Of a DNA stretch of 56,350 nucleotides, positions 9,046 through 56,350 are shown piece after piece. A program made the position numbers and the translations under genes. The stretch's first letter is position 1. Each line of letters opens with the position of its first letter. The DNA comes from Psammoneis japonica (Eukaryota): assembly GCA_008632985.1 (NCBI GenBank), contig QPGO01000064.1, forward strand, positions 372,001 through 428,350, read 5' to 3'. The notes under the pieces are model-generated. The model saw only the letters and a program-made list of their open reading frames with translations, ran no database searches and was not told the origin of the DNA.

Positions 9046-11613
9046 TCACGGATCGGCGCTCTCTTCTATTTCTGCAACGGCCTCGTTAACAGCTCTCAAC
9101 GCAATATTTGCTTGTTTCCGAATAAAGGTTTCGTCTGAAGGGATGACGGGTAGAAGCATCAGGGGGTCACCACCAAACGCAAAAGCTTCGACCGCATCAG
9201 CACTCAGAAAAGCTCTGGCGTTTGGTACAAAGTAGATATTCCTGCACAAATCCTTCGCGGAGAGTATGTGCAAATTCGTAAGAACACCGCACACAAACCC
9301 AAGCTCTTGCATATACTTTTGCTCCTTCAATTCTCGAAGAGCGATGATCCAGAGAGCCAAAACACGTGCAATCCGGACACGATTTTCGGGCGCAGTTCCA
9401 AACTTGTCGTAAATTGTTTCGCATTGGAATCTTGCCTCCCCGTACTCCTTTCCTATGCAAAGTGCTTCTGCATAGCACCGACTCATTTCCAAGACCTCTC
9501 CTGGACTGGGATTGGTGCTTCTGTGGATATTGCCGACTCCGCGTCTACAGCATTCGATGGCATCAATAGCAAGTTCCATGCTTACAGGGCATCCTTTAAC
9601 CTTGTCCATTTTCATTTGTTCATGTTGTAAGAGGTACCTGTTCCGGCGATGTTGGTATGCGACGTGTTCAAACCTTTGTTCCATGACAAATTCGCCACCC
9701 GGCTCCAGAAGAAATGAATCGAGAGATGTTTCAACCTTGATCAGTCCAGCCTCGATAACTGATTCCGCATTTTTCCATGAATTAGTGACCATGTAGTATT
9801 TTGCTTCCTCTAGACAGGCCAGAGCTTCTACATTTACAAACTGGGATCGGCCGGGTCCATCCCACGCTTCGTCCCTGGGGTCTGGTACCCGACTCAACCC
9901 CTCGTTGATTACAGATTTGATTTGTCGCAGTGATCTCTCGCATTTTTTCCCGAGGTCACGCAGAGACTTCTGATGATTATCTTTTGCTCTTTTGCCAAGT
10001 TTGGTGTCTCGATGGGCTGTCATATATTCTCTGACCGCAGTCTGAACCTTTGGAAGAAAAACCAAAGCTTTCTGGAAGCTCAATCCAGCGCGTCGCACTA
10101 CGGGAACCTCACCATCGAACATGCCAAATAGATCCTCCGCATAATTTAAGTAGTCCAGAGCAGTCTTGAAGTCTGCCGCTTTTCTTCGTCCAGTCGCATA
10201 GTCAAAGGCAACACTGCAGTAGGCGTTCAACTTCCTGTCATTCAAGCTCCCATCGTACTGAAAGCTATCATCTTTGATACTTACCTTATCTGCTTCAAGC
10301 GCGAGATTCATATCTAGAATTTTCCCCAACTTTTCTAGCTCTTTAACAGCTTCATCAAGAGAGAGCATCTCACCGTCTTGTTCTTTCTCCATTGTTGGTA
10401 AAGCACGCTCAAAGAAACTCATTATTTCCCATTCCACGCCGTTGAGCCGCAATTCGGTGGAAGCTCTGGTAAAACCAGTTTCAGTGAAAAGCTCGAGTCT
10501 TTTCTGCTGCCAATCAGCTTCCCCAATCCAAGCAAAGTACACGCAAGCAACGGCAGCACGGAAGTCATCCTCTGAAGTGTACACTATGGAATTTGCGGTT
10601 GCCTCCGGAATGGAACCAACGTAGTGTTTGTATCGAGTTGGCACTCCGCCGACGGACATATCGGCAACCCCAAAGTCGGCGAGCTTAACGGTGAAGGATT
10701 GATCGTCCCGCCCCCTTTTGAGAAGGACATTTGCAGGTTTAATGTCGCGGTGTGTTACACCATACTTTCGAAGGAGGACCACAACATCACATAATTCGTA
10801 TAGCATGCGAACAACATTAGGCGGATTCATCGTTGGCGAGGCCTTACCCACCCTATTGGTGCTCCGATGCGCGGACGACTTTTCTTCGATCCATTCAGCG
10901 AGGGATAAATCACAGAGTTCCATAATGAAGTACTCGTAGGTTTGTGATGAAACTGGTCTCGAAAGCAGTTTAACGATATTGGAATGGGGTGGGAGGAATG
11001 TCAACGGCGTTGCCTCTCGCAACTTTCGGGAAAGGTGTCCCGTACGTTGAGATGACAAGACTTTGATTGCGACATTTCGTTCTGATTGTTCTTGTCCTTG
11101 CCGTCCATCACTCTCACTTCCACTATCGTCAACATCCACATCCTCTTCTTCAATGGTCAGTAACTGTTTCGCTGCAAAGACCATACCATTTTGACCGGAC
11201 CCCAAATGGCGGTATACCTCGCAGTTCACCGGAATCGCTCTCAAAAATGACTTGACGCGCTCACTCTCGTCCAAGATACTATGAAAGTTCTTCTCCGGTG
11301 AAGCCGCGTCCACTTTCTCAAATGGCATGAGTCCTCCGTATCTCTGTATTTCCATTTGCGTCATGCTGGAAGACAGGAGGTTGTTCTCGTTGCTGGACGA
11401 GGGAGAACCCTCTTCTTCCTCCTCACTCTGGCCCATCATCATGTTCAACTCATTGCTTCGGAGTGATGGCTCCCTCAGGAGGAGATCTTGCGCCGGAACA
11501 ACTTGTCCCGACGAGCCTTCGACTACCACGACCGTCGGGGGGGCTGCTGCCTCCTTCACGGAAAGGCCTTCCAGATCTTCGGCTAATTTTTGATCACCGG
11601 ATTCCTCAGACAT
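9046..11613 (-). CDS. Ser/Thr-type protein kinase with long helical (TPR-like) C-terminal region
   Basis: 855 aa intronless ORF. LGSGQNGMVF, VAIK, HRDIKPANVLL, KLADFG. Divergent subdomains VIII-IX (IPE, DDFRAA). Confidence 0.9.
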   Translation of the reverse strand: MSEESGDQKLAEDLEGLSVKEAAAPPTVVVVEGSSGQVVPAQDLLLREPSLRSNELNMMMGQSEEEEEGSPSSSNENNLLSSSMTQMEIQRYGGLMPFEKVDAASPEKNFHSILDESERVKSFLRAIPVNCEVYRHLGSGQNGMVFAAKQLLTIEEEDVDVDDSGSESDGRQGQEQSERNVAIKVLSSQRTGHLSRKLREATPLTFLPPHSNIVKLLSRPVSSQTYEYFIMELCDLSLAEWIEEKSSAHRSTNRVGKASPTMNPPNVVRMLYELCDVVVLLRKYGVTHRDIKPANVLLKRGRDDQSFTVKLADFGVADMSVGGVPTRYKHYVGSIPEATANSIVYTSEDDFRAAVACVYFAWIGEADWQQKRLELFTETGFTRASTELRLNGVEWEIMSFFERALPTMEKEQDGEMLSLDEAVKELEKLGKILDMNLALEADKVSIKDDSFQYDGSLNDRKLNAYCSVAFDYATGRRKAADFKTALDYLNYAEDLFGMFDGEVPVVRRAGLSFQKALVFLPKVQTAVREYMTAHRDTKLGKRAKDNHQKSLRDLGKKCERSLRQIKSVINEGLSRVPDPRDEAWDGPGRSQFVNVEALACLEEAKYYMVTNSWKNAESVIEAGLIKVETSLDSFLLEPGGEFVMEQRFEHVAYQHRRNRYLLQHEQMKMDKVKGCPVSMELAIDAIECCRRGVGNIHRSTNPSPGEVLEMSRCYAEALCIGKEYGEARFQCETIYDKFGTAPENRVRIARVLALWIIALRELKEQKYMQELGFVCGVLTNLHILSAKDLCRNIYFVPNARAFLSADAVEAFAFGGDPLMLLPVIPSDETFIRKQANIALRAVNEAVAEIEESADP

Positions 11614-13280
11614 GTCTCTCTCTACTCTTTTTCTTGTTGTCGTTGGTATTATATGGTGGTGGTGGTGTTTTGGAACCTCAAACCTCCAAACCTACCGGTA
11701 TGTTTTTCTCATGCATGATGCGATTTCGAATGTTGGTGTGTTTCAATAGGAATATTTTTCAGATTTTTCAGATTAAACACGCTTTAAAACAAAAAAATGC
11801 AAAAATGCGAAAAAAGTGACCAGATGCACCTCTGCAGTAAGATACACAGTACAGTACCGTATGTACCGGTAGGCGGTATTACGGTATGATAGAAGATTGC
11901 ATGAATGCGCTGTGAATGCTGGACACCGGTTTTACTATTGTGGAGGTAGACGGAAAGAATACAACCCTGGGTACAACTGCGTAGGGTCTAGTACTTCTTC
12001 TACAGGGTCACCAGGAAAGCACAGACACCGACTTCCGCTACATCAACCTGCAGCACCCTCCAAGACGCGCAGCTGCGAAGACAACCAAAAAAGAAAACGA
12101 TCGCGACAATGGCCTCCCTTGCGTCGCTGATATCTATATCTATTTTTGCCGTATTTTCCCGTTTCTTTTCGCAGCATTCGGAGCTTTTATACAAGTAACA
12201 TGATGGGCTAGTGGTGCTGGCGTTGAGTTCAATCCGTCGAGGCGGATTTGTCGCTGAAGGTGCAGTGCAGAAATTGTGAGAATGCAGCATCAACATGACG
12301 GATTTTTGTGATATACTATTGTATCTTTGGTGTTGTTTCTCACTTCTTGTCATTATTTTGACGTATGTGCTATAAGGTGTCCACGGGGCTTGGGTTTTTA
12401 TGGTGCTGACTTTCTCTTCGGAACTTATCGTTGAATAATCAAAATTGAGCTGCCACTGGAATTTATGGTAAAGAGTTGGCGGCGGTGATATCTCAACATC
12501 CCTTGGGCCGATTTTCGCGATTCTTGTTTCATTATTAATGGAAATTGTACAAGGAATCCAAGAGGCTTGGTTTTGTTGTGCAAAATTCCATTCTGTGCAG
12601 ATGGATTTATTGGATGCCGTGCGCACAGAAATGATGCTTCAATTGGAAGGGGCGCTCCAGCGATGTTGTGGATTGAACAAGGAAGAATGAAGCCCTAGAC
12701 ACGCACTACATGTAACAAGAATATTAAATATGAATGTTAAACATGGCACGGGGTTTTTTACGTCAGTTGATCGTGTCGGGTTGCCTTGATTTGACAGAAC
12801 ATTCCACGGCACCAACCGGTTTGACATGTAGCTGGAAATCGGCTTCCTCCAGTGTTCCAACCAATTTGACCTTGCTTGCATGGGCAAGCTGTTGTCGCCT
12901 GGTTCGGGCGTTCCATACGCCTTTAGACCCATCCACCACGACATCGTTGGGGGTTGTTTGAATGGCCTCTGGTTGGTGAAGTCTTGTTCACATTGACAAG
13001 TCAACCCGCCAAGAAATAACGTGAGTGCTATCAAGGTTGGCTTGTAATACTTTTTAGACGGCATGGTCTCGGTTGTATTGTTGCATAAATCTATCAAAAA
13101 CGCGACGTACCATGCAACAACCCGGTTGTTTCGATACGGGAAAAATTCCCGTGCTTCCTCCACAAGAACACGGAAGATACGGTCGCTGAAGTGGGGTAAC
13201 GGTCAGTACAATGTGTAGAATTCAACGGAGAAATACTACGGAATACAACATGGGTTGTATTCCCGGGATAATGTACCGGT

Positions 13281-15087
13281 ATGCAGGACACAATATCTCT
13301 ATTGTCATTATCCACAATACGCAGTACGACGCACCACAAGCGAGAAAGCTTTTTGGAAGAAACGACAAGAGCAGTGCACTCCAAGATGAAGGGCAACTCT
13401 AGCGCCTCGGTTGTTAATGATGAGGAAGGAAGGGGACGAAAAGAAAATGACTCATTATTATTGGACGATTCCACTGTGGCAACGACGGTCACAGACTTCA
13501 CCTTTCTGCCTCCTTCATCTCCCCGGAGACAACAACGGAGGACTACCCCCACTCCACACGGAGTATATATAACACATCTCCAAGAAGAAGAAGGAAAAGA
13601 AGAAGATGCTGCTTCCGTAAAAAGGATACAGACTGCGACGATAGACCGGACTACAGTCCGGGACGAGATCTTTGCGGCCTTGCAGGTGGTTGGGACGCAC
13701 GCTCATCGACTAGTACATCCTTCCTACAACCTCGAGTTCCACGAATTCATGAGAATATTGGACGAAGTTGCACAAGCAATTGCTCACGTGAATCAGGCTA
13801 GACTGCAACAACAACCGATTGGATCTCCAGTCAGTAGCCTACCCACCGAGGAAGAAGCGGAGAACATGAAGCAAATCGTTGAATTCGGAGTCGGAGTGGC
13901 CACGAAGATGCTCGCTGCTGTTGTCCAATCCCGCGACGACGACGCGGGTACTGCTACTACTACGACGACGAAGGAGATCTTTGATGTTTTCATTTCCTAC
14001 GCAGGTGAGGAAGGCTTCCTCTATGTCCCGATGCTCTACAAGGAATTGGAGGGAGCACTGACGACATCCGGTTCCTACGCGAGGCACAAAAAGCCAAAGA
14101 TCTTTTTTGACAAGGAAAAACTCGTTTCCGGGGACCCATCCACCGCTGACCCTCCGGAAGCCATGTTATCGAGTATTCTCTCGGCCAAGACCCTCGTATT
14201 TGTTACTAGTTTTCATTTCTTCCAAAAGAAATGGCCTGTCATGGAATTTCTGTGTGGCTTGGCCCGCCTCAAAAAGAACGCACACAACCCTTCACCGCCT
14301 CCCATAATCATTGATGCCATGCCGGGTGAGGTTTGGATGGTAAGTGCAGAAGGAAAGGACAGACCGACGTCAAATTGGGTCGACGATGTCAAGGAACTAT
14401 ACACGGAGATTACCCTGCCTGCTCTTTTAGTTACCCTCAATTCGAAACAAGGTACGTATATCTAGCACCAGTGAATGACACAACGAGGTTCTCAAGAGTT
14501 AATGAAGGGGTCTAACTCGTCTCCATGAAAATTTGCCCCTTTTCGGTTGCACAGGACTTCACCATATAGGGGAGGTTGTCCAAAAGGTTGTAGAGTCAAT
14601 CGATCAAAAGATACAGAACACAATGAGCTCGCCGAACGCACCCTACGAATTCGACGACAATGATAATTGGATCATGTATCGCGATCTGGTTCAGGCCAAA
14701 ATTACGCAGCAAGAGTGCCAAGATGCACTGTACACACAGGGGCGCACATCAAGCGTCCGTGCGCTAAAGGATGGAACTTTTGTGATTCGTAAAAGCAATG
14801 GAAAGAATCACGTTCTGACAGATAATGTCGAGAAACAACTGTGCAAGCTTATCTATGTTAAGAACTTGGAAATTAGGGAAACGTACTGGTTCTACGACAC
14901 TCTCAAGGGCAAGTTTGTTCTGGTGCCGGTTCCCCAAACCCCCAGCGCCGACAACGTCTTCGGATCTTTTTCCGAAATTCTCCAAGAACTCAACCTAAAT
15001 GACTGGCGTAGAATTAAAGGGTACAGCGCTTGCGTCAAATCTATGCTGACCAAAGCAGTGGAAGAAGTGAGAGGGAGGGATAAGTAA
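13281..15087 (+). CDS. TIR domain + C-terminal SH2-like domain protein (2 exons)
   Basis: TIR: FDVFISYAGEE...IFFDKEKL...LVFVTSFHFFQKKWPVMEF. Intron 14452-14554 (gtacgt...ctaac...acag) joins in frame. Exon 2 carries W...ITQQECQDAL...KDGTFVIRKS...FGSFSEILQEL (SH2 pattern). Confidence 0.8.
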
Positions 15088-15186
15088 CGGCTTCACCGAA
15101 CATTGTTTGCGAACCAGAGTAATTGTTGCAAGGAAGATCTAAACCGAGCAAACGATACCCATCTTTCGCGGTGGTTGCCGTTGGAA

Positions 15187-15443
15187 TCCCAAGAGAAAGG
15201 AAAAGACGTGCCGAATCCTACCAAAGGGTAGGCAGAGCATTGCGATGCCGAGAGGAAAACATGCCGACAGCATATAACCGAGAGTGTCGACATCAATCAC
15301 GATGGCATCAGACAGATTTGTGCGTGCCCCCTGACAAATTAGGGAACAAGAACAACAGTTGGAGCCACCTACTTCTCGAGAGAGTAAATGTACTCAAGGG
15401 TCTGATACGCAACAGTTGCAGGAAGAAACTGCGCATGACTCAA
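15187..15443 (-). pseudogene. 5' fragment of a duplicate MBOAT/LPCAT gene
   Basis: Aligns to ~16838-17102 (ccaagagaaaggaaaagac...gggaacaagaacaacagttggagccac...ggaagaaact...catgactcaa) with indels. Confidence 0.92.
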
Positions 15444-15592: not shown

Positions 15593-17095
15593 CTAGTCCT
15601 TCTTCTGAACAGTTTCAATAGGAGTAGGGAGCAGTGCAACGATGATGTAAAAGGCTACGGCAGCAAGGTGTCCACAGTAGTACAAGCTCTGCCAGCACAT
15701 CAAGGAACGATCGAGGGCTAAGAGCGAAAAGGGCAGAATCGTGTACTCTAAGCACCGAAGAGTGACAAATCGACAAATATTGTCGTAGAGACTCCACATC
15801 TTGTCAGAAAAGCGGGGTGACAACTTTTTCCTGCCAAGCCTTTCACACATGGTAAATAGTGTTGTTGTAAGGAACGAAAGATAGTAGCCAGGATAAAAGC
15901 CATGCCAAAAAGCACTCATACTGTAGACTGCAACAAGACTTCCATCGAAGCGAATGTATACGTAACGAGTAAGCCATTGTGCGGTTTTCTTGTTCCAGTT
16001 CTTTGACATGCTCGTGACGTTTGAAGCAGTTTCAAAATTGACAATATCCATATTGTTGGAGTTCTCCCAGCCAATCGCATTGCCGTCCGCATCAAATCCT
16101 TCAAACCCGGCGTACCATATGTTGTTTGCACCCTCTGCATTCTTCCAGCCAAAGTAATACTTTGTACGCCAAGCAATAAGGGTCATGTAGAGGTACGCCA
16201 GACGAATGTACATGGGTCTTGATTGAAATTCCGAGGTCAAAATGACTGGAGTGTTGCTTTGTGGGTCGACCGGATCCAGCAAGGGAAACATGGCACCAAG
16301 ACCAACATAGAGTGCCATGTTTAAAAGAGAAACGAGCAAAGGCCTCAATGTTGGCCACACATTGCTTGGAGGCTCGCCCCGTTTCTTCCCATCGGGCGTG
16401 TAATAGAGACTTCCATCGCATATGCTACAGTACGTGCTAAACTCCCAGGAAGGACCGCACAAGATTGTTGAAAAACAAAACGTGTACCCGAGATACTCAA
16501 CAATACCAGGAACCTTTCGAAGAGCCCACTTGGCACATTTTTTTGTGGCTCGATTGCCTCCACCAGATGCGAGTACATGCCCATCATAGATATTGTACGC
16601 CAACATGTAGAGTTTTTGTGTCAAGATCATTTGGGTTGCCGTAAAGTCCAAATCATATGCGAGATAGTTTGTGTATTGACGGTAAAGGTGACCAAGTGTC
16701 AGGTAAACGAAAGCAAAAGTTGGGACAGCCGTTTTCAGGGTTGTTGGATGAAGCACCAGACACATTGCGTATACAACAAGCGAAGAGATCAGCTGATGAA
16801 TCCATCCAACATCCAAAGTAAATTGAAGAACAAAGACTCCCAAGAGAAAGGAAAAGACATGCCGAATCTTTCCAAAGGGAAGACAGAGCATTACGAGCCC
16901 GAGAGGATAGCACAGAAACATGCCGAGCGCATAACTGAGAATCTCGACATCAATCCCGACGGCATCCGACAGATCTTGTACGTGGCCCCTGACAAATTCG
17001 GGAACAAGAACAACAGTTGGAGCCACATACTTCTCGAGAGAGTAAATGTAGTCAAGGGTCTGATTCAAAACAGTTGTAGGAAGAAACTCGCTCAT
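15593..17095 (-). CDS. MBOAT lysophospholipid acyltransferase (LPCAT/Ale1-like)
   Basis: 500 aa multi-TM protein. QMILTQK, KYYFGW, WNKKTAQWLTRYVY, SAFWHGFYPGYYLSF. Confidence 0.95.
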   Translation of the reverse strand: MSEFLPTTVLNQTLDYIYSLEKYVAPTVVLVPEFVRGHVQDLSDAVGIDVEILSYALGMFLCYPLGLVMLCLPFGKIRHVFSFLLGVFVLQFTLDVGWIHQLISSLVVYAMCLVLHPTTLKTAVPTFAFVYLTLGHLYRQYTNYLAYDLDFTATQMILTQKLYMLAYNIYDGHVLASGGGNRATKKCAKWALRKVPGIVEYLGYTFCFSTILCGPSWEFSTYCSICDGSLYYTPDGKKRGEPPSNVWPTLRPLLVSLLNMALYVGLGAMFPLLDPVDPQSNTPVILTSEFQSRPMYIRLAYLYMTLIAWRTKYYFGWKNAEGANNIWYAGFEGFDADGNAIGWENSNNMDIVNFETASNVTSMSKNWNKKTAQWLTRYVYIRFDGSLVAVYSMSAFWHGFYPGYYLSFLTTTLFTMCERLGRKKLSPRFSDKMWSLYDNICRFVTLRCLEYTILPFSLLALDRSLMCWQSLYYCGHLAAVAFYIIVALLPTPIETVQKKD

Positions 17096-17648
17096 GACTC
17101 AAAGTTGTTTCAAAACTATCATTCCGCCATGTGCACAAAGAAGAATTCTGTTCTCTGTTCAAGTCTAAGACACCGCAATTATCATGGTTGTCAGTCCCGA
17201 ACCCGATGACACCGAACTCCCCACACGACCCATCTTGGTCGTTTCTCGCGGTAGTACGTTGCCGCCATCGACGGTGATCCGTGATCACTCGAGAACCATG
17301 GCGGAGTTCTGACAGCACCACGCACAACATCGCAACTCCCGTCCAACCGTTGAAAAGAAGCGCGGGAAAACTCGCAATCACTATCACTAAAATTGTATAA
17401 TTTTAATCTTTTTTATTGATAGTGACGTTGAATTTTCATTTTTGGAATTGACGTCATTCGGTTGGTCGCCGATTTTCACGAGCCTCCGTAGAATTGTACG
17501 AGAGCCGCAACGTCACCGTGAAGCCACCAACGTCAGCCTTTCTCCAAAACTCCCGCTCCTCCCTCCAACACTCATCGCACGGCATGTTTCAACACAACAT
17601 CATAATCTGTTGTTCAGGGTGATTAAAACGCTGGCAACTCTTTTGACA

Positions 17649-23798: not shown

Positions 23799-26700
23799 TC
23801 AAGCTCGAGAGATGACGCTGACCTTCGAGGTGCTGCAGTCAACACGGATCGTATCCCCATCCTAAATAGTGAAAGCCCCAAAAGGAAACAAAAGGAGTAA
23901 CGCTTGATAAGTGCAATGACACGCAAGGCTAAACACAAATCCAATGCGTCAATGAACCTCGTACCTTGAATTTGTCAGTCGCCGACTGAGTTCCGACGAC
24001 AGCTGGGATTCCGTACTCTCTCGCAACAACTTTAAAAAAGAAAGCAAGTGCAGGTGGAGAGGTAAGTTACAGAAACTATCAACAGCTCGATATCCAATCC
24101 TTTGGGACGCAGCTTTACTTACTTGCAGCATGACTAAGCATGCCCCCATAGTCAGTACAGATCCCCGCACATAGGCCGAGGACACAATTGAAAGAGGCCG
24201 AACACGAGAAGGTAACGACTACATCACCTTTCTTGACTTTTTTAAGGTCTCCATCATTCAACACAACGCAACAAGGGCCTTCAATCACTCCTGCAGATGC
24301 GGCAAGCCCCTTGACTGCGTCAGGATTGTTTTCAATGTCCTCGTCCTCGTCTTCGCCACCCTGTCCTTCGTCCCAAACACCACGCAACAAGCCAGTGTGA
24401 ATCGCACCCATGGTTCTACGAATGTTTGGAGGGAGCAGCATCGGATCTGGTTCCGGAGGAGGAACTCCAAGAGTTCTGGGAATCGCGTTCACGTCCGCCT
24501 GGATAATGTAGTCATATCTCCTTTCAAGCTCTCGCGGTGTCGGAACATCGACGGGCCCAATACGTACTCCGCTCTGGTCGGACAGCAAACTCAGGTCACC
24601 ACGAAGCAACGCAATCGCTTCATGCTTTCGAGTCACACACAAATGCTCGGCTTTGTAGATGACGCCATGTTCGACCAAACGGCGACCTCCTTCAAGCATG
24701 CCACGTCGGCACAAACCGATACCCGACAAGTCTGTCCAAAGACCACGCTCGTCTCGCATTCGGAAGAAACGGCGTCCAACATCCAACACGGCGTCAAACT
24801 CTTCATGTTTGTCAGCCGGCAGGGTGTCTTTCCATTCCTTGGCTGTTTCCAACACACGAGCTTCCGCTTTATGAAATGCGTCGGGGTCCTCTTTTGTTCC
24901 AGAGTACACTGTGTTGAGAAAGAACGACGGCGTCTCAACGAGGGTCGGAGTAATGAGATCGTATGACCCGGCCAGCCTCCAACTACGCGGTCATCACAAG
25001 AAAGGGTTAGGGTGGCTCATTGATACACAGTCGATGACGCGCTAAGACTTACCCGTAGCGACTCATGACTTGTCTCATGACTTCACCGAGCTCGCCAGGA
25101 AGGTGCAATAAACAATCAACGGCCCATGCAGCTTTGCTCTCCTCGACTTGCAACAGAGCCATGGCCTCATCGGACTGAACAAGAAGCTCGTACATTCTGG
25201 CCAAGAGCGGATCGTCGCGATTTAAAAGCCCCCTTGATTCAGGCGAGGCGCTCTCCAAGAGTGCCAAGGTTTCCATTGGGTCTTTCTTCATTAAGGCAGC
25301 CATACTATTCATGAAATCGCCGACCACAACAAACGCCGGAAAGGTATAAGTGTGATGGAGCTTCCAGAATTCGGCGGCCAAGTCAAAACAGCGAGCCACG
25401 TGCTTGACCAAGTCTCGATGACTGAGCGCAGAGGGGTTGACAGCAAGCAACTCATCATGAAGAGCTTTACATTCGGGAATAAAGAAGTCTCGAAACTCGC
25501 GATAATCATCTTCGTATAGCTTCTTGCTCCAGTAAGCCTCGGCAGCGCGTTCCAACGCATCCGACGGGGGACTCATGCTCGGTTGCGTGTAAACAAACTG
25601 ATGCACGTAGCGGAAATTAATGTCACTGATCAAACAACCGGTGCGCCGCCCGCGTTCCGTTGAATAGGCCAAGCTGTACGTATCTTGCATCCATGGGGAA
25701 AAAGGTCGCGGGAAGTGTGTTGGATCAAATGTCCAGAATCCTTCACCGGGCGGCAAAAACGAAAGCGACCCGGTACTTCCAAGCGTCGTGATGGGCCTCG
25801 ACTGCAATATCTTGAGATTGCCATTAGCGTCCACTGCCCATTCAATATCCTGAGGACGGTTGTAGTAATCTTCAACTGCGCGGGCCATTGCAGTAATCTG
25901 CAAGAGTTGTGTATTGGTGAGAACCGGTCCCTCAGCAACATCATCACCCAACGCAACCTTGACGACGCCGTCCATGTTTCGAGCTCGGACAAACTTGTGG
26001 GTCTGTTTGCTCAACTGTTGATATACTAGTTTCTTGGAGAATTTGTCCAACACATAACGATCCGGAGTGATCTCGCCACCAACAAGGCCTTCTCCCTGCC
26101 CATAGACGGCTTCAATCATGACTTCATTGGCTGAACCCCAGAGATTCTGAATACCAAAACAGAATGATAAAGAAAAGGAGAGTATGGTGAGAGCGCGCAA
26201 GAAATATTCAAAGAGGCCCTCCACAACGCATATTTTTTGTTCTGACATACCTGAGAGAAGCAAACTCCCGCCGCCTGGGCTTCCACCATTTTCATCACCA
26301 GCACTCCCATCTGAGGAGGCTTCATCTTTCCTGGACGATACGTCGAGGGCTCGTTTGTCAACGGCTCGTCCTTGACCTCCAGAAAGGTGGAGTGCCTGGC
26401 ATAGTCCACAATATGGGGCTTAAACATGCTTGCCCAGCACGATTTGATGCTCTCGCATACTTCTTCCGTTGTACTCTTGTAGAGATATGTGTCGTACTGG
26501 CCAGCAAAGGACTGAGAAGCCAAATCTTCAGCTGATCCAGAAGAGCGAACCGCCACCATTGTACCTCCTCCCAAGGAGTCCAAGAAAGTTTCAAGGTTCC
26601 CCACCACGTCTTCGTTGAGAGGTGTATCCATGATTTTCGTGCGAATCTCGGCGAGCTTCTTTTCCGTCTCCTCGCGAATCGTTTCATCGGCGAGGTTGCT

Positions 26701-27021
26701 TGCAAAGACCTCCTCCACCAAATCAACGACACCGGCATTGTCAATATGCATGGAGTAGACATAGGTCGGTAAAATAAAAGCCGGAGGCACGTCGAGTCCA
26801 TGCTTCATGAGACGCCAGCATTGCAAGGCCTTGCCTCCTACCAACGCCAGAGTCGCATCTTCGTAGCTAGCCAACGGACAACCGAGACTTGCATCGAACT
26901 TCGCTTTATCCAAAGTTGCTTGGAGCTCGACCAACTTCTGACGACTTGCAATAGACGGCCGACCGTCATTGGGCAGCACCCATGATCCACGTTGCATAAA
27001 CGCACTTTGACGTCGAGGCAT
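23799..27021 (-). CDS. PEP-utilising enzyme with rifamycin phosphotransferase/PigC-like architecture (PPDK_N, central domain, C-terminal His-swivel), multi-exon
   Basis: VGGKA, AVRSSGSAED..SFAGQYDT, GQGEGLVGGEITPD, PQDIEWA, LQSRPITT, TDYGGMLSHAA|VVAREYGIPAVVG|DGDTIRVD. Four GT-AG introns. Confidence 0.88.
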
Positions 27022-27460
27022 GTTGTAAATGTTGTTTAGAATGAAAAGTGAGACAATCTGCCTTCACAAGAAAGTGTGAGCATACATGGCGTGAAGTTGA
27101 GAAGTTTGAGGGGCACAAAGGAAATCCTCCGCAGTATCAACTTTCACGTAGAATCTACGTGGAAGGTGGCGCGATCTTTTTTCACAAGACGATTGATCCT
27201 GCACGCGCGCGATTCCTGCACAGCCGCGCGGCAAAGATCGCGCGAAAGATCGCGCAAGAGACGAGTGACGTGTTCTTTGTATGTTCCCGCCAAAATCAAA
27301 AAGCGTGCGAGCAAAAGATGCGGATGATGTGTGATGTGCATTTTGTTGACACAGCACAATCGTCACCATGCCCGATGCCAACGCATTACGGCAAAGTTTA
27401 AAGATCGTCACAAAAACAACATCACTCTCATAGATCAAAAGGTGAAAGTACGAAAGAAAA

Positions 27461-29762: not shown

Positions 29763-31208
29763 TCACGACATGAGCTCCATGACCCAATTCAGATGAGCGC
29801 GAAGCTGCATCGCAGCGTCGGAACTCATATCCCGAGGCACGCCTACGCGGTCTCTCAAGTATGTTAGGCATGTATCCAACTGTAGCGTTGGTGGTGTCCA
29901 AGTTGTATCACCAGTTTCCTCATTCCAATAGTAGGTGGATCCGTTCTCATCCTCATAGGCACCCCAATTCGCACGAAGCTCACCTGTACCTTTGCTACCC
30001 GCAAGATCCAGTTTGGCAGCAGCCATGGCGTTGTCAGTGCCTTCGATCAAAGCAACAGTGACATGGCGTAGGCATGTATCCACCGCATCGAAAAAGTCTT
30101 CATTTGGTTCGGCGTACGGATCTGCAAGCTCGGCGTGGAAGGCAGGCCGACCTGGCTCTCCGGCGCCTCGGCAGGCAAACTGAACGATGTTGCTGGGGTT
30201 CTTGATGAGGCAATAGGCAGCTTCGTGTCTCCCCTTTGTGGTTACTAAAGGAAGGCTCCAGGCACCATTTAAGCCGCATATGTGGTCGGCATATTCTCTC
30301 GCTTCTGGAATCATGTATCCTGGCCCATTCTGTGACGGCATGGCCTTTGCGAGTGTGTAGTCATCGGATTTGCTAGCTTGGTAACTGGGCCTTTCATCCC
30401 ATCGCGATAGCCACAAATCTAAATGTCGATACTTCCCCTTGATCTGAATGCCTTTATAATACAGAGTGGAACTCAGGAGTTGTTCCATTGTGGGAATAAA
30501 GTGCATGTCGATAACGGATGGCGAATCGCCTCCTAGAAACCACGGACCGGGGGTTTCACCAAGTGCGTCGTCCACCCGTTGAAGAGCCTTTTCAAAGTAC
30601 AAGCGGGCAGCAACTAGCGCCTCATCTTGAACAGGATAAAAGACCAATGAGAACCATACTCGTTGCAAGTCTTGCTCTAACTCAATGAGGGCCTTGTACT
30701 TGTCGTCGGAAGGACTTATGGAGTGTTCCTCTCTGGAAAACGTAGCATGAAGCAGTTCCATAATTTGAAGACTCTCGGTGTATAGATTTCCATCCAATTG
30801 AATAGCAGGTAACTTGCCTCCATCTACCAACCTGGTGAACCATGCTGGTTTGTCTCCATACGCATTCAACGGTACCTTTTCGACCATATATGGTACTTTG
30901 AGCTCCTCTAGTGTAAGCCACACCTTTTGACAGTAGTTGCACCACGCTGCGGAGTCACGATAGAATTTGACGCGGACATGATCTTTCTTGGAACCAAACA
31001 ATCGGAGAGATGCGTCTGTGTGAGGTGGCCCTTCACCCAATTCTCGTTCCTTCTCCTCACGGTCCAACCTCTGACCCTCTGGAGTTGCAACGAGACGTTT
31101 TCTCAGTTCTTTCCATGAAGGTGCATTATCTGATGGTAAAACGGCCAGAGCATCAATGGTTTCGACATATAAGAAGAATAGAATCAAGAGCAGCATCAGT
31201 AAGAGCAT
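29763..31208 (-). CDS. Glutathione S-transferase (Cys-type, DHAR/lambda-like) with an inserted WW domain
   Basis: Signal peptide. YRDSAAWCNYCQKVWL, GKLPAIQLDG, TESLQIM, GPWFLG. WGAYEDENGSTYYWNEETGDTTWTPP. YLRDRVGVPRDM. Confidence 0.88.
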   Translation of the reverse strand: MLLLMLLLILFFLYVETIDALAVLPSDNAPSWKELRKRLVATPEGQRLDREEKERELGEGPPHTDASLRLFGSKKDHVRVKFYRDSAAWCNYCQKVWLTLEELKVPYMVEKVPLNAYGDKPAWFTRLVDGGKLPAIQLDGNLYTESLQIMELLHATFSREEHSISPSDDKYKALIELEQDLQRVWFSLVFYPVQDEALVAARLYFEKALQRVDDALGETPGPWFLGGDSPSVIDMHFIPTMEQLLSSTLYYKGIQIKGKYRHLDLWLSRWDERPSYQASKSDDYTLAKAMPSQNGPGYMIPEAREYADHICGLNGAWSLPLVTTKGRHEAAYCLIKNPSNIVQFACRGAGEPGRPAFHAELADPYAEPNEDFFDAVDTCLRHVTVALIEGTDNAMAAAKLDLAGSKGTGELRANWGAYEDENGSTYYWNEETGDTTWTPPTLQLDTCLTYLRDRVGVPRDMSSDAAMQLRAHLNWVMELMS

Positions 31209-31501
31209 TTCAGAGAATAATTCATCACAAAAGACTGCTTGCCGTGACGACAAACCGCCATGGCCTATCGGTAGCCCTACTCTGCTGCACCGCGGAGGGA
31301 GGTCGAGTCGTCGAGAAAACGAATACAAACAACTATATACTTGTATATATTTTATGATACTCATTTTTCTTCAAGCGCGATCGCCGATCGCATCGCGACG
31401 ACGAGAGTATGAAAACAAGTCAGCAAGAGAGACGCGTTGCGGCCGCTTCCCAGGAATGCAAACACACTAACAGCCCTGTTTTCTTGAAATAGGACGTCAA
31501 G

Positions 31502-40403: not shown

Positions 40404-43400
40404 CTATGCAGAGGCACGAGTTACTCGGCGAACACCGCGTCCGCCCGTGAGAAACTGTGGTAGACTATTCGAAACATCCTCCACTCCCTTGGATTTTCGC
40501 AAGAAGACAGGTGCCAACATTTTAACTGTGTTGCTGCCGCCCTCCACCTGTGAATCGGGAGAAACTTTCCTTACGGATTGGTTTGTGTTGCTACCATCTT
40601 CCGTTGAGGGAACGACCTCATCGTGGATGTCTGAATCCCGCGACGCCTCCTTCGAGGCTTCGTCCTCAGATTTCTCTGTCGTATGAGTATAAGACTTCGG
40701 GGCGGCCTTTCGAAGTGGAGTACATCTGATTCTCTTTGTGGCGGGAGCCTCTTCGCCGATGTCATCTGCTCCATTCATAGCGCCCCTTGTTCCCTTCCCA
40801 GCAGATGCACCATTGGCATGGTTACCAGCCGCCAGCACTTCACTAGAGAAGTTTTCGCTTGACGGCACGCTAACGCCCGTCTCGTCAAGAGACTTGGTTA
40901 CTTTAACGCGAGGACTTGTTCTCGTCATGGAATCTGTCGGGATGGGCTCTTCCTCACCCAATACGAAGGCAGCATCGATATTTCGTTCTCGTCCGCCGAG
41001 AACGTACGACACGGCATAAACGATTGTGCCGTTGTCCCGACGGTCAACGTGCTTAACCCTGCCTACTCCTCCAGGCTTGTTAATTCCAGGCCAGGTACGA
41101 GACTGAACTTCTACAACATCACCCACAACGAAGGGGCCCTGCTTTCTGCGGGTTTGCGGCGCATTGACAACACCACGTGGGTTCACATCACCATTGACCG
41201 ACGCGATTCTCTGCGGTGTCAAAGGCAAACGCTGTCGCTTTTGGGGTGGAGAACTGGTTTCTTGAACAACTTTTCGGGGGCGCCCACGTTTACGCTTCTG
41301 TGGATTCGCCGCTTCGTTCTGAAACGATTTCATACAACTCGACGGACGTGCCTTACGAGGCTTTCCGAGAGGCCAACCCCTTTTCTTTTTCAAAGGTTTT
41401 CCGACTGACACATCAGGTGGAGGAGCCGCGAGTTTGGTTTCACCTACGTCTGCATCTGCCTCTGCAACGATGGGCGAAGGTTTGACTTTCGGGGGGCGTC
41501 CTCTCTTTCGCTTGGGTGCAGGTAGCGGTTGGAGAGATTTTCCCAGTGGAAGACTGGGAGGAGCGGCGAGTCTGGCTACATCACTTTCCGGTTTGACTTT
41601 CGGGGGGCGTCCTCTCTTTCGCTTGAGTGCAGGTAGCGGTTGGATAGTTTCTCCTGGTGGAAGACTGATAGGAGCTGCGAGTCTGGCTCTATCACTTTCC
41701 GGTTTGACTTTAGGAGGGCGTCCTCGCTTTCGTTTGGGCGCATGTAGAGGTTGCGGAGCAGCGGAGAAAGCAGTAGCGTTGGTAGCGATTCGAGGCCTTC
41801 CGCGCCCCCTCTTAACAGCGGGAGCCACACTCAATCCCTGCAAGTGCGCCAGAACGTCCGCGCTTTCAAGGGAAGGGTCGTATCCCGCGCCACTCGTTTC
41901 GGGGATATCCCACTGCTCTTGATCAGCATCGACCGTACGTTTCATACTTCGAGCCTTCACTATTTCACAGAAACTGGATGATACATCCAATTCTTTACCC
42001 TCGGCTTCATCCACCAACATCCAAATCGGCCGTCCCTCAGCCTGGGGTTTGTCAGGGCCCCAGAGGCCAACGCGGCGCATCGGCGCGAGATGGCACCACT
42101 GCAAATCGGGTATATAGGTAAGCACATAATAGTAATCAAACAACTCCGATGCCGGGGTGCTATTGTAGTTGACAAGCTTGACCACCTTGTTGAAGAGACC
42201 ACCTTGAGATACGGAAGAGTCACTGAGGTCTGGATAAGCCTCGCGATACACAGCAAGTTCCACTTCATAAGCCGTCTTGGCCTTTTGGTATGCCTCTCGC
42301 TCCTTGAGGTGCATCGCTTGATATTTCTGCTTATATCGTTCGTCGAGTTCCTGCCACTGCCGCGAAAGCACCTTGGTCAGCTCCGGCAACGGCTTTCCAG
42401 CCATTGTTTCCTTGAAGAGGTGTCGATGATCTCGACAGAACAGCAAGTACCCGGATAGCGGTCGTTTCGGGCGGACCGGGGCAGTAACTACAGCCCTTGA
42501 CGCTGCAGCCGTTGATGGGGCGGCGGCAGAATTGGACACCTTGCTCCCATTCATCGTTGCCGGTGTTGTCTGATAGGTGGAGTCCTTTGGTGGCTCATAC
42601 TTTTCCTGAATGGAAACCGCAAGCGACTCTTCTACGGGTTTTCGCAATTTGGCTCTCGCCGCTTTCTTACGATTCAATTTCAAGGCCATCATGTAGCTTG
42701 GCTCGCTTGTTTCGAGAGTATCGGTAGGAAAAGTCCAGTGGCAATAGGGCTGATAAGCATCGTCGCTCACATGAAAATGAGACACCTTGATTCGTGTGCC
42801 GTCTTTGAGCCTTGAGTTTGATTGCAATTCCGGAAAACGTGCGCGGTTTCCAGCAATAACATCTTGCCAAGATACTTGAAACATTTTTGCAATCTTGCGT
42901 GGGGTGTCGTTTTCCTTGGCAATATACCAGGTGGGAGTATCGCCGTCGCAGTCATTCTTGCGCTTGGCTTGTTTGGTGGGAATAAAGAGCGAAGTACCCT
43001 TGATAAGGCGGCTTCTTGGAGCAATATCAGGATACACGTATTGATTCAAAAAGATAATGTCCCACACATCGCAGTGAAACCGTTTTGCAAGATCCACAGG
43101 ATGCTCACCCTGTTTCTGCGTAACGTATGTGGTGACATCACTAGAAACCACTTCAGGTAACGGATCTTCCTTTTTCTCCTCGTCCTCTTCGTCTTGACGG
43201 CGCATTCTCTTCTCAAAGTCTAAATCTTCGGTAATACATCCGACCTTACGAACCCAAGTGACTCGTAAAACGGCACGGAATTGTCTGTAGCTTGCAAAAC
43301 AACATAGTCATAGTTTCTAGACCCAGTTGAATTCATGCGTTCGAGTTTTTCAATAACTAAGGAGACCAAGGTCTGACAAAGACAACGGTATAAATGAGAT

Positions 43401-50264: not shown

Positions 50265-52300
50265 GCAAGGTCCTTGAAAGAACTGTTTGTTTTCCTTCCT
50301 TGAAACAACGTGTTTGATTCCTTGAAAAGACATGTTTGTTTTCCTTAAAATGACGTGTTTGTTTTCCATGAAACAACATGATTGTTTTCCTTGAAACGAC
50401 GTGTTTGTCATGTTTGTTTTCCTTGAAAAGACGTGTTTGTTTTCCTTCCTTGAAACAACATGATTGTTTTCCTTGAAACAACATGTTTGTTTTCCTTGAA
50501 AAAACGTGTTTGTTTTCCTTGAAAAGACATGTTTGTTTTCTTTGCAATTTGAGTGGACATGTTTGTTTTCCTTGAAAGAACTTGTTTGTTTTCCTTCCTT
50601 GAAACAACACATTTGTTTTCCTTAAAAAGACATGTTTGTTCTCCTTGAAACGACATGTTTGTTTTCCTTGAAAAGACGTGTTTGTTTTCCTTGAAAAGAC
50701 ACGCTTGTTTTCCTTGAAAAAACATGTTTGTTTCCATTGAAACCACTTGTTTGTTTTCCTTGAAAGAACATGTTTGTTTTCCTTGAAACAACCTGGTTGT
50801 TTTCCTTGAAATGACGTGTTTGTTCATCTTGAAACAATGTGTTTGTTTTCCTTGAAATGACTTGTTTGTTTTCCTTGAAACAACATGTTTGTTTTCCTTC
50901 CTTGAAAAGGAAATGTTTGTTTTCCTTGAAACGACATGTTTGTTTTCCATCAAATGACATGTTTGTTTTCCTTGAAATGACATGTTTGTTTTCCTTGAAA
51001 CAACATGATTGTTTTCCTTGAAACAACATGTTTGTTGTCCTTGAAAGCACTTGTTTGTTTTCCTTCCTTGAAATGACACATTTCATTTTCTTTGAAAAGA
51101 CATGTTTGTTTTCCTTGAAACGACATGTTTGTTTTCCTTGAAAGAACATGTTTGTTTTCCTTGAAACAACATGGTTGCTTTCCTTGAAATGACGTGTTTG
51201 TTCATCTTGAAACAATGTGTTTGTTTTCCTTGAAATGACTTGTTTGTTTTCCTTGAAACAACATGTTTGTTTTCCTTCCTTGAAAAGGAAATGTTTGTTT
51301 TCCTTGAAACGACATGTTTGTTTTCCATCAAATGACATGTTTGTTTTCCTTGAAATGACATGTTTGTTTTCCTTGAAACAACATGATTGTTTTCCTTGAA
51401 ACAACATGTTTGTTGTCCTTGAAAGCACTTGTTTGTTTTCCTTCCTTGAAATGACACATTTCATTTTCTTTGAAAAGACATGTTTGTTTTCCTTGAAACG
51501 ACATGTTTGTTTTCCTTGAAAGAACATGTTTGTTTTTCCTTGAAATGACGTGTTTGTTTTCCTTGAAAGAACATGTTTGTTTTCCTTGAAACAGCTTGTT
51601 TGTTTTCCTTGAAACGACATGTTTGTTTTCTTTGAAACAACATGTTTGTTTTCCCTGAAACAACATGTTTGTTTTCCTTGAAGAGACATGTTTGTTTTCC
51701 TTGCAATTTAAAAAGACATGTTTGTTTTCCTTGAAAGAACTTGTTTGTTTTCCTTCCTTGAAACAACACGTTTGTTTTCCTTGAAAAGACGTGTTTGTTT
51801 TCCTTGAAATGACGTGTTTGTTTTCCTTGAAATGACGTGTTTGTTTTCCTTCAAACAACATGTTTGTTTTCCTTGCAATTTAAAAAGACATGTTCGTTTT
51901 CCTTGAAAGAACTTGTTTGTTTTCCTTGAAACAACATGTTTGTTTCACTTGAAACAACATGTTTGTTTTCCTTGAAATGACATGTTTGTTTTCCTTGAAA
52001 AGACATGTTTCTTTTCCTTGAAACAATGTGTTTGTTTTTCTTGAAACAACATGTTTGTTTTCTTTGAAACAACATGTTTGTTTTCCCTGAAACAACATGT
52101 TTGTTTTCCTTGAAGAGAATGTTTGTTTTCCTTGAAAAGATATGTTTGTTTTCCATGAAACTGCTTCATTGTTTTCCTTGAAACCACTTGTTTGTTTTTC
52201 TTGAAAGAACCTGTTTGCTTTCCTTGAAAAGTCACGCTTGCTTTCCTTGAAAAGACATGTTTGCTTTCCTTGAAAAGACATGTTTGTTTTCCTTGAAAAG
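50265..52300 (-). repeat. 23-bp satellite array with a 378-bp higher-order duplication
   Basis: Unit tgtttgttttccttgaaa+(caaca/cgaca/tgaca/agaca/gaaca). Identical ORFs at 50839 and 51217 are offset by 378 bp. Confidence 0.95.
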
Positions 52301-53529: not shown

Positions 53530-55110
53530 TGAAGTGGGGATGCTTGCGCAACCGCTGGAAAGACATTGTCAACGTGATGATCTTTAAAGAACCAGGGAAC
53601 AACAAAGTCCATCGACTGCAGGTCACAAACATGTGTGAAGCAGACCATCAAATCATCACGAGTGTGAAATGGCAAGAATTGGCACAGCAAATGGAGCACC
53701 ACTGGATGTGCAATCCCGGCATTTGTGGATGCCGCTCATTCCTTTCTGCCCAGACTCCTGTGTTTCTTGAGAACTTGACATCAGAAATGTCGTGAGCTTC
53801 TCGAAAGACAGCGCCAATGAGTGATGATGATTGTGCCTCTTGCTTTGACAGAAACATTCCCGTGCTGGTCGGACTTTGCTCTTGGAGAACAGCGTGCACT
53901 CACAAGTTGTTGAAGTTGACATGGGCACTCTGTGTCATGCCAGGCACTGGCTGCAAACCCTGCTGGGCTCAATTCAGCTGAGTTGTTCCCACACAGAAGA
54001 TTTGCCTCTGTGCGGCACAGGGCAAGGTGGTGGAAATTCCCCATGGCATTGGAACACCCTCTGCAACCGTCTTTTTGACATTTTTGATGCCAGAGCGATT
54101 GGAGCTCATTTTGAAACCCCTGACGGCCAATTTTACATCCGAGTCTTTAACCGAGGATGCGCAGATGATGCGTCCAAACAAGCCAATGACTGCCGAGCAA
54201 GTCCTCTGCCTTCGGCGTTTGATCTGTCCTTTTCTTTGCAACAGGAGAGTCAACTCCCAAGTCCCACTCTGGCACTCAACTCTCAGACTCAGTTGAAGAA
54301 ACTCCAACACAAGAGTGACACTGGCTGCAGCTCTTTTCCTTTGATCTTGTCCACTTGATCATGCGGGAACATGGAGATGCTGCTGTGCATGTCATCTCTC
54401 CTCAATGACCTGTGTTCTCCCTGACTCAACCTTTCTCCCTGAAGAGTTGCTCACCACTCAACAGAAAGCAATGCGGGTCACATTTGCCAAATGTGGGTGC
54501 AACTGAAGCACAAAAAAACTCATCTTGTGTGGTCCACAAGCTCTTGGCAGCAATGGTTTTTGATCGCCAGACATCAAACAAGGAGTTGCTCAATTGCAAA
54601 TGCTGCTCAAGCATTCCAGAGGTGTCACACATCTTCATCTGGGAGAGGATCAACCCCACAAATTGCTGCACATTGCAGTCTCATGGATCTAGCTGAACTT
54701 GGGGACAGGCGTGAGCTTCTTGTGGGGTGCAGATGCTGTTCTCCCGCACATGGAATCATGTTGGTTTGCATCCGTTTGTGCGTTCTTGCACGGGATTCAA
54801 GGGAAAGTTTGCCTGACACACTCTGGAGTCCTCCCTCTCCAATGAGACAACAACCAGCACATCATGGATGCTGCACTCCAGCCCCAACTCTTTTCTCAGC
54901 GTGAGGTCCAATGGACCAATTGTTGTTTGCATCTGCAGGTGTTGTCCTTGTCTGATGTTGCTCTGGCAGATGACTTGACATTGGATGCTGCAAAGATGGC
55001 AGGAGATCCTTTGCTCCAGAGTGGTGCCAGAACTATGAACAACATTGAGCAGCAGAAACCAGAGACAAGAGCCTGGGCAGCGTGGAGAAAAGTTCTGCGC
55101 TTTCTTGTGA
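53530..55110 (+). mobile_element. Decayed non-LTR retrotransposon RT remnant (Ambal-like)
   Basis: RWKDIVNVMIFKEPGNNKVHRL..EAD, DDDCASCFDR, GTGQGGGNSP, GCADD, NCCLHLQVLSLSD, WAAWRKVL. Confidence 0.85.
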
Positions 55111-55690
55111 TGTCATTTCAAGGAAAACAAACATGTTGTTTCAAGGAAAACAAACGTGTTGTTTCATGGAAAACAAACGTGTTGTTTCAAGGAAAACAAA
55201 CATGTCATTTCAAGGAAAACAAACATGTCATTTCAAGGAAAACAAACATGTTGTTTCAAGGAAAACAAATGTGTTGTTTCGCGGAAAACAAACGTGTTGT
55301 TTCACAGAAAACAAACATGCCATTTCAAGAAAAACAAACATGTCATTTCAAGGAAAAAAACATGTCATTTCAAGGAAACAAACGTGTCATTTCAAGGAAG
55401 GAAAACAAACAAGTTCTTTCAAGGAAAACAAAGATGTCTTTGTGACGAAAACAAACATGTCTTTTCAAGGAAAACAAACATGTTGTTTTGAAGGAAAACA
55501 AATGAGTTCTTGCAAGGAAAACAAACAAGTTGTTGCAAACAAAAGAAACAAGTTGTTGCAAGGAAAACAAACATGTCTTTTCAAGGAAAACAAACATGTT
55601 GTTTCAAGGAAAACAAACATGTTGTTTCACGGAAAACAAACAAGTTGTTGCAAGGAAAACAAACATGTCGCTTCAAGGAAAACAAACATG
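55110..55690 (+). repeat. Second array of the same 23-bp satellite, inverted orientation
   Basis: Unit tttcaaggaaaacaaacatgttg. Confidence 0.95.
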
Positions 55691-55799
55691 CAAAAAAGAA
55701 AAAAGAGAAAATCTGTTGGCAGCGCTGCCAGCGAAACATGTTGTTCACAAACACATGCCTCTGACACAAAGAACACTTTTCCACGATGCTGTGTTGCTG

Positions 55800-56350
55800 A
55801 GATTGGCACCATGTTGTGCTTGCAGCCTGCTCTTGGTTTGCTTGGAGAGAGAAGGCAGATGCAATGTTCCCAACAAATGTGCTGAGGATGGCTTTGCTTT
55901 TGGAATTTGGTTGGACAACCAATGGCCACAAAACACAAGCTCGGCAAGCTCAACATTGAAAAAGAAGAAAAAGTTGAGGAGGCTGGTGTTGAGTGGCTCA
56001 TGTGGGAAAATCAATTGGGCACAATGCCCTCTCTTCTCAAGCAACTCACAAAATGGGAGGGACTTTGTAACATGCCAAGGGGCCACAAAGAGGATGGGGA
56101 GAACCTTGGAAAATGGTCAAGTGACCAATGGGATGCCACAAGGAAAAGGAAACTTGATGCTTCTCAACAGGAATGACTGAAGAAGGCCAGAGCCAAGTGG
56201 GACATTCTTGCTGAGCATCGGGAGACTGTGTTTTCTCTTCTCAAACAGTTTGTGGTGCATGAGGGAAGCTGCAAAGTGCCCCATTGTCACACTGAAAATG
56301 GAGAGAGACTTGGACATTGGCTGGACATGCAAAAGCAAGCATGGAAGGCT
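55800..56350 (+). pseudogene. Helicase-associated (HA) domain repeat gene, decayed, runs off the window
   Basis: EREGRCNVP...GIWLDNQ; WEGLCNMPRGHKEDGENLGKWSSDQ; HEGSCKVP...GERLGHWLDMQ. Frameshift and stop codon. Confidence 0.85.

Follow-up and report, generated by a model that had tools for sequence, protein, structure and literature searches.

A very divergent TIR-domain gene with an uncharacterised partner domain in the diatom Psammoneis japonica

The window analysed here is a stretch of 56,350 nucleotides of contig QPGO01000064.1 from the diatom Psammoneis japonica, and at positions 13281–15087 of its plus strand lies a predicted two-exon gene for a TIR-domain protein. Exon 1 (13281–14451), as given by its open frame and translation, consists of 390 codons and the first base of a split glycine codon. 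It is followed by a predicted phase 1 intron of 103 nucleotides (14452–14554, GTACGT...CACAG) and by exon 2 (14555–15087), which has 176 codons and ends with the stop codon TAA at 15085–15087. With a slash marking the exon border, the predicted donor reads AAG/GTACGT (GT at 14452–14453) and the acceptor CCCCTTTTCGGTTGCACAG/G (AG at 14553–14554). The length of the intron is not a multiple of three and the glycine codon is split in phase 1; splicing restores the frame, which then runs uninterrupted from 13281 to the TAA and gives a predicted product of 567 amino acids. Left unspliced, the frame of exon 1 goes from the ATG at 13281 to a TAG at 14463–14465, with the read-through tail GTYI before the stop.

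The first-pass annotation had proposed that a 103-nucleotide intron joins the two frames, and this agrees with what is found here, since the borders can be read in the sequence and the frame is restored after splicing. It had also pointed out that the track of open reading frames splits the TIR part from exon 2, and the two are indeed listed as separate entries, 13272–14465 and 14506–15087. The motifs on which it had drawn are all present where it had placed them, namely FISY (13989–14000, residues 237–240) and WPVME (14232–14246, W318–E322) in exon 1, and ITQQECQDAL (14701–14730), DGTFVIRKS (14770–14796) and FGSFSEIL (14959–14982) in exon 2, all on the plus strand.

Upstream, an open frame of 881 amino acids at 9049–11691 (minus strand, opposite to the TIR gene) encodes a protein kinase domain, matched by Pkinase with E 1.7e-17 and by PK_Tyr_Ser-Thr with E 3.7e-15; some 1.6 kb separate it from the start of the TIR gene. 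Downstream, a gene of the MBOAT family is found at 15596–17098 (minus strand), and between it and the stop codon of the TIR gene lies a fragment copy of its own N-terminus (15142–15393, minus strand; 51 residues aligned at 63% identity, E 7e-20), which is probably the relic of a partial tandem duplication. A pyruvate-phosphate-dikinase-like (PPDK) gene occupies 25052–27063 (minus strand); it has a 104-nucleotide GTATGT...CAG intron at 26147–26250 and was used to judge what size and style of intron to expect. Elsewhere in the window there are an open frame of 535 amino acids with N- and C-terminal glutathione S-transferase domains and a C-terminal WW domain (29766–31370, minus strand; E 1.4e-6 for the WW domain), a 967-residue open frame with an HMG box (E 1.1e-14) and a weaker LysM match (E 8.1e-6), an unusual pair if both are real (40407–43307, minus strand), and two matches to the 'grass antifreeze beta roll' ice-binding family PF21300, at 50625–51707 (minus strand, E 1.6e-9) and 55049–55882 (plus strand, E 8.3e-7).

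We now consider whether the two frames of the TIR locus belong to one gene. Codon frequencies were trained on eight Pfam-confirmed open frames of the window, which themselves score 0.13–0.21 bits per codon. Measured in this way, the predicted frame of exon 2 reaches 0.168 bits per codon, as compared to −0.41 and −0.35 for its two other frames, and the intron is negative in all three frames (−0.60, −0.16 and −0.54). The gene-like codon usage of exon 2 in the predicted frame only, together with the non-coding character of the intron, supports the gene model. The PPDK gene mentioned above consists of two frames with abutting Pfam matches (profile positions 2–188 and 186–314) on either side of its 104-nucleotide intron, which shows that this genome ordinarily has introns of such a size and style. 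Both the donor and the acceptor of the predicted intron have good consensus. There is an alternative donor at 14340 (ATG/GTAAGT) that looks stronger, but it is unlikely to be used, because it sits inside a stretch that is conserved in the one relative of the TIR part, a protein of 330 amino acids called P0001.

The same relative is informative about the junction itself. P0001 can be aligned with the window protein up to ...NSK(R), that is, as far as the donor site. Beyond it, P0001 has a tail of 14 residues that starts with K-G-M-W, runs to the stop codon and is unrelated to the GTYI read-through tail of the window protein. As far as can be judged from the P0001 protein only, such a tail is what read-through of a conserved G/GTAYGT donor would be expected to give.

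An alternative scenario is that the two frames do not form one protein at all, with the TIR gene ending at the TAG at 14463–14465 and exon 2 being either a separate small gene, starting at an internal ATG around 14620, or a relic. The splice junction has been read from the sequence alone, and 43 further GT/AG combinations are formally open besides the predicted one, but the open frame of exon 2 extends up to a good acceptor. P0001 stops shortly past the junction and no relative has both parts, which would suit two separate proteins, although the lack of any relation between its tail and that of the window is what an intron predicts. The fragment copy of the MBOAT gene just downstream shows that local rearrangement has taken place, whereas the codon usage of exon 2 is fully gene-like; in addition, a TIR domain without exon 2 would, as discussed below, presumably miss its last helix. 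We therefore regard the two-protein scenario as very improbable, and conclude that the two open frames most likely constitute one spliced gene, on evidence that is indirect but consistent.

Concerning the identity of the first domain, the call made in the first-pass annotation holds: exon 1 encodes, as judged from its profile matches, a real but divergent TIR domain of the bacterial and plant TIR_2 type, with a core at 13980–14451 (plus strand) that extends from beta-A, 'FDVFISY', to the end of the exon. Pfam, NCBIfam, PADLOC, the PDB profile search and the ESM Atlas all agree on this, although no sequence match passes a curated threshold by itself. When the whole of exon 1 is compared with Pfam, TIR_2 (E 0.056) and TIR (E 0.071) are the only families listed. 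For the stretch 13950–14450 the matches are TIR_2 (PF13676; E 0.0061, 17.5 bits against a gathering cut-off of 28), TIR (PF01582; E 0.02, 15.1 bits against 21.3) and DUF4385 (E 0.14), and P0001 alone has TIR_2 as its only match (E 0.0079). The TIR portion of the NCBIfam model Retron_TIR (NF042941) is matched with E 4.8e-4 by the window and 1.1e-3 by P0001, at a score of 19 bits compared to a cut-off of 600 bits that was set for the whole retron protein. In PADLOC, 13950–14450 matches PDC-S66 with E 7.6e-6.

A profile built from the window and P0001 was run against all PDB sequences, and both of the matches obtained at E<=10 are TIR proteins, 4lzp (E 0.043) and 3h16 (E 0.92). The former is the TIR domain of BtpA (PMC7188309), and the latter is entered in the PDB match table as 'TIR protein'. 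The ESM Atlas gives a recognition of 3283 for the TIR part and a best score of 0.95, 173 of 256 features being shared; its best ten matches all belong to the TIR family or clan, and TIR appears in all six clusters listed. The likeness of this stretch to TIR domains is thus clearly beyond chance.

Structure prediction was less useful. The AlphaFold2 model of the TIR part, obtained from a two-sequence alignment and for a piece that leaves out the probable last helix in exon 2, has a mean pLDDT of only 40.4, and the Foldseek search with it, which gave no meaningful match, used a model too poor to interpret. A helix is predicted at the start of exon 2 (14560–14625, plus strand; exon-2 residues 2–23, AlphaFold pLDDT 35–42), and on the usual topology of TIR domains it may be the last helix of the fold, alpha-E. 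In that case the intron would cut the TIR domain rather than separate two domains.

It should be pointed out that P0001 is the sole relative of the TIR part that a search of 5.8 billion clusters returned, with 50% identity over 265 residues, and that scans of metagenome and viral contigs gave no relative of this part. With a single relative among so many clusters, the evidence from conservation is thin. The alignment starts at residue 126 of the window protein and therefore includes a region upstream of the TIR core, residues 126–223 (13656–13949, plus strand), for which a low-confidence model predicts helices and which has no family match in PADLOC or NCBIfam, nor does the rest of 13281–13949. 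The 5' end of the gene is less sure than the remainder, and the start codon could be either the ATG at 13281 or that at 13386 (Met36). Over the first 125 codons, codon usage scores close to zero (−0.001), as compared to 0.21 for the remaining part of exon 1, and P0001 aligns only weakly with the N-terminus (local score 36, equalled by 20 of 500 shuffles).

NADase activity is usual among bacterial TIR_2-type and defence TIRs, and we now turn to the residues that would be needed for it. The first-pass annotation had placed WPVME at the position of the NADase glutamate, and this is upheld by the alignment with a solved bacterial TIR NADase, BtpA: the five residues W318-P-V-M-E322 fall column by column on the catalytic WxxxE of 4lzp (WPARE) and on WPQKE of 3h16, the printed alignment having ...KKWPVMEF... 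of the window on ...KQWPAREL... of 4lzp. In BtpA, the tryptophan and the glutamate of this motif (W213 and E217) are catalytic, and the E217A substitution abolishes the NAD-dependent toxicity (PMC7188309). The W and the E are also invariant between the window and P0001. E322 is thus a putative catalytic glutamate, with the proviso that WxxxE is necessary for NADase activity and not proof of it.

Another possibility considered was a scaffold protein whose TIR domain has no enzymatic activity and serves for assembly or as an adaptor, as it does in the adaptors of animal Toll-like receptors. However, the profiles and Atlas clusters that match most closely are those of bacterial TIRs of the TIR_2 type and of defence TIRs, and W and E are both kept in the window protein and in P0001. 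An intact WxxxE in both known members, together with best matches of the bacterial and defence type, makes a NAD+-cleaving mechanism the most likely one, and we consider the scaffold option unlikely, albeit less so than the other alternatives discussed in this work.

The C-terminal domain comprises residues 36–176 of exon 2, about 140 amino acids (14662–15084, plus strand), and holds the DGTFVIRKS motif. The first-pass annotation had identified exon 2 as an SH2 domain, an assignment that goes back to this one short motif and that the present analysis does not support. On the sequence comparisons, the domain is a lineage-specific orphan and not a recognisable SH2: the sole signal is a 15-residue Pfam match, and the PDB matches include no SH2 domain. 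The possibility to be weighed against this is that the domain is a very divergent SH2, which would couple recognition of phospho-peptides to the TIR enzyme.

The motif itself is the main argument for such a possibility. It is similar to the 'FLVRES' motif of SH2 strand beta-B and shares its arginine, which is present in F-V-I-R-K-S at 14779–14796. A six-frame scan of the window finds the pattern G[ST]F[LIVM][LIVM]R.S a single time, as compared to 0.01 times on average in 200 shuffled versions of the window; when the exon-2 protein was shuffled 200,000 times, a fraction of 1e-5 of the shuffles had it. These figures overstate the significance, however, because the pattern was written after the sequence had been seen and the region was chosen for the motif. 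The Pfam SH2 profile, named as a check in the first-pass annotation, gives no domain-length match at its curated cut-off of 21 bits. With the whole of exon 2 there is no match to PF00017 at E<=10, and of three trimmed pieces of the exon only the one of 82 amino acids (14695–14940) has a match, with E 0.16 and 12.5 bits; it covers 15 residues, at profile positions 19–33 of 77, and amounts to the DGTFVIRKS motif only. A trimmed piece of 113 amino acids has no match to the SH2 profile.

The comparison with PDB sequences by phmmer points in the same direction. At E<=10, none of the 11 matches of the whole exon 2 is an SH2 domain (two are HA3, four sorting nexins and five nanobodies or VHH domains), nor is any of the eight obtained with the 82-residue piece (five nanobodies or VHH domains, a dextranase, colicin N and AgrC). 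The nanobodies matched by this piece cover the very stretch in question, their framework-3 segment G-R-F-T-I-S-R-D-N-A-K-N-T-V aligning with D-G-T-F-V-I-R-K-S-N-G-K-N-H-V at E 0.25–1.3. These matches are no worse than that to SH2, yet would lead no one to regard the domain as an immunoglobulin, which means that the likeness at the level of the motif is not specific.

The AlphaFold2 model of exon 2, calculated from the single sequence, has a mean pLDDT of 50.8, with values of 61–73 only for residues 41–80. In this poor model, helices are predicted just before the motif (residues 51–60, pLDDT 66–73) and after it (131–144), an arrangement that is roughly SH2-like, but a long helix at 86–102 occupies the position expected for the central SH2 strands. 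The spacings from the tryptophan to the helix and from the helix to the motif exceed those of the Pfam profile. Searching the PDB with the model by Foldseek gave no match at E<=0.001 and no SH2 among the matches listed, and VIA-align against 48,161 representative chains reached a best Z of 5.0, its matches being to generic alpha/beta folds and its top 50 including no SH2; these last comparisons are a weak point in the argument, the model being so poor. Taken together, we find it improbable that the domain is a divergent SH2. The more specific version, in which the orphan domain is a highly diverged SH2-like reader of phospho-peptides fused to a NAD+-cleaving TIR domain, has in our estimation a slightly slimmer chance still. 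If true, such a TIR-SH2 fusion would form a direct link, in a diatom, between signalling by phosphorylation and immune or cell-death signalling based on NAD+.

The orphan character of the C-terminal domain is also reflected in the searches for homologues of exon 2. In a phmmer search of 1.84 billion representatives no true homologue was obtained, the one match, P0002, being judged spurious. This repeat protein of 3604 amino acids matches many times, always to exon-2 residues 13–46 (14593–14694 of the window) and with 26–34% identity. No single repeat reaches significance, but together they push the whole-protein E-value to 4.6e-11, which illustrates how repeats can give rise to a false homologue. 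A word-indexed search of 5.8 billion clusters yielded 54 candidates with common words, none of them at E<=10, and the metagenome and viral contig scans gave no relative of exon 2. The ESM Atlas returned no usable match, the recognition of 2236 being lower than what 91% of proteins from known families attain.

Two further identities were considered and rejected. VMAP-M5 (PF19967), at E 0.054 the only Pfam match on the whole of exon 2 at E<=10, was weighed because such regions adjoin effector domains in bacterial conflict systems. Its scores are 13.5–13.9 bits (E 0.054–0.074) as compared to a cut-off of 27, there is no vWA-MoxR context, and the matched stretch is predicted to be mixed strand and helix, whereas the VMAP-M regions are described as almost entirely alpha-helical (PMC7159879). 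The PDB match to botulinum HA3 (E 0.024) is an apparent artefact, as the segment, from residue 3 of the chain, resembles an acidic expression tag, D-Y-K-D...D-D-D-D-K.

On this basis, the reading that we prefer, and hold to be fairly probable, is that of one spliced gene for a soluble protein of some 530–567 amino acids, which would combine the conserved helical region, a divergent TIR domain of the TIR_2 type with WxxxE, and the lineage-specific C-terminal domain of about 140 residues, and which would likely cleave NAD+ in a trigger-dependent manner. Following what is established for TIR enzymes, a trigger would cause the TIR domains to self-associate, and the associated domains would then cleave NAD+. 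The consequence would be either depletion of NAD+ or the formation of signals derived from ADP-ribose, and this output could be part of a response to stress or infection. The helical region and the C-terminal domain might control the assembly, regulate the activity or sense the trigger. The sequence itself speaks for the gene structure, the TIR identity and the alignment of the glutamate at the catalytic position; we infer the enzymatic activity, the oligomerisation and any role of the C-terminal domain.

TIR enzymes have a central part in the immunity of bacteria, plants and animals, and if the window protein is active, it would be a candidate for a NAD+-based stress or antiviral switch in diatoms, with the orphan C-terminal domain as a candidate new sensor or regulatory module. 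It is important to note that standard annotation would miss this gene, because the profile scores are sub-threshold and the gene is absent from the protein collections searched. Full-text searches of the literature for SH2 domains in diatoms or stramenopiles and for architectures with TIR and SH2 gave no report of a fusion of this type, and 'SH2' is absent from the text of a survey of TIR domains (PMC7075850). The gene product is a very divergent TIR-domain protein with an uncharacterised partner domain, and a new architecture is not demonstrated by this. In true SH2 domains, the arginine of the beta-B motif binds phosphotyrosine. The SH2 family (PF00017) and exon 2 are alike in the DGTFVIRKS motif, at profile positions 19–33 and including that arginine, but they differ in predicted secondary structure and in spacing, and there is no match over the length of the domain.

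In the case of retron-TIR (NF042941) and PDC-S66, the TIR part of these proteins matches residues 227–329 of the window protein, and only this portion is matched, corresponding to model positions 336–419 of 464 and 142–228 of 282, respectively. In contrast to them, the window protein is without a reverse transcriptase or other partner domain of theirs and does not belong to a prokaryotic locus. The TIR domains of Brucella BtpA/TcpB (4LZP) and of Paracoccus PdTIR (3H16) share with the window protein the beta-A 'DxFISx', a K-I-F-x-D strand with a G-D loop after it, and WxxxE. The similarity is marginal and sub-threshold, and the window protein differs in that its gene is spliced and eukaryotic, its N-terminal region is conserved and helical, and its C-terminal domain is an orphan. 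Furthermore, the window protein is not a secreted effector, and its NADase activity is putative.

A further comparison is with the TIR proteins of the haptophyte Gephyrocapsa huxleyi, which are expressed during virus infection and resistance (PMC12489294). They are reported there to conserve the glutamate at the catalytic position and to have no NBS or LRR partners, and a NAD+-based antiviral role has been proposed for them; according to the authors, TIR-based antiviral systems had not been described earlier in microalgae, and the link of microalgal TIR enzymes to virus resistance is only beginning to emerge (PMC12489294). These proteins were defined by means of HHsuite and AlphaFold 3, some of them are membrane receptors, and the group of organisms is a different one from that of the window. 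They have in common with the window protein that they are microalgal, carry the glutamate at the catalytic position and are without NBS or LRR partners, a likeness drawn from their published description. To this comparison the present work adds a very lineage-restricted TIR protein from a diatom, with a catalytic-type motif and two unannotated flanking regions.
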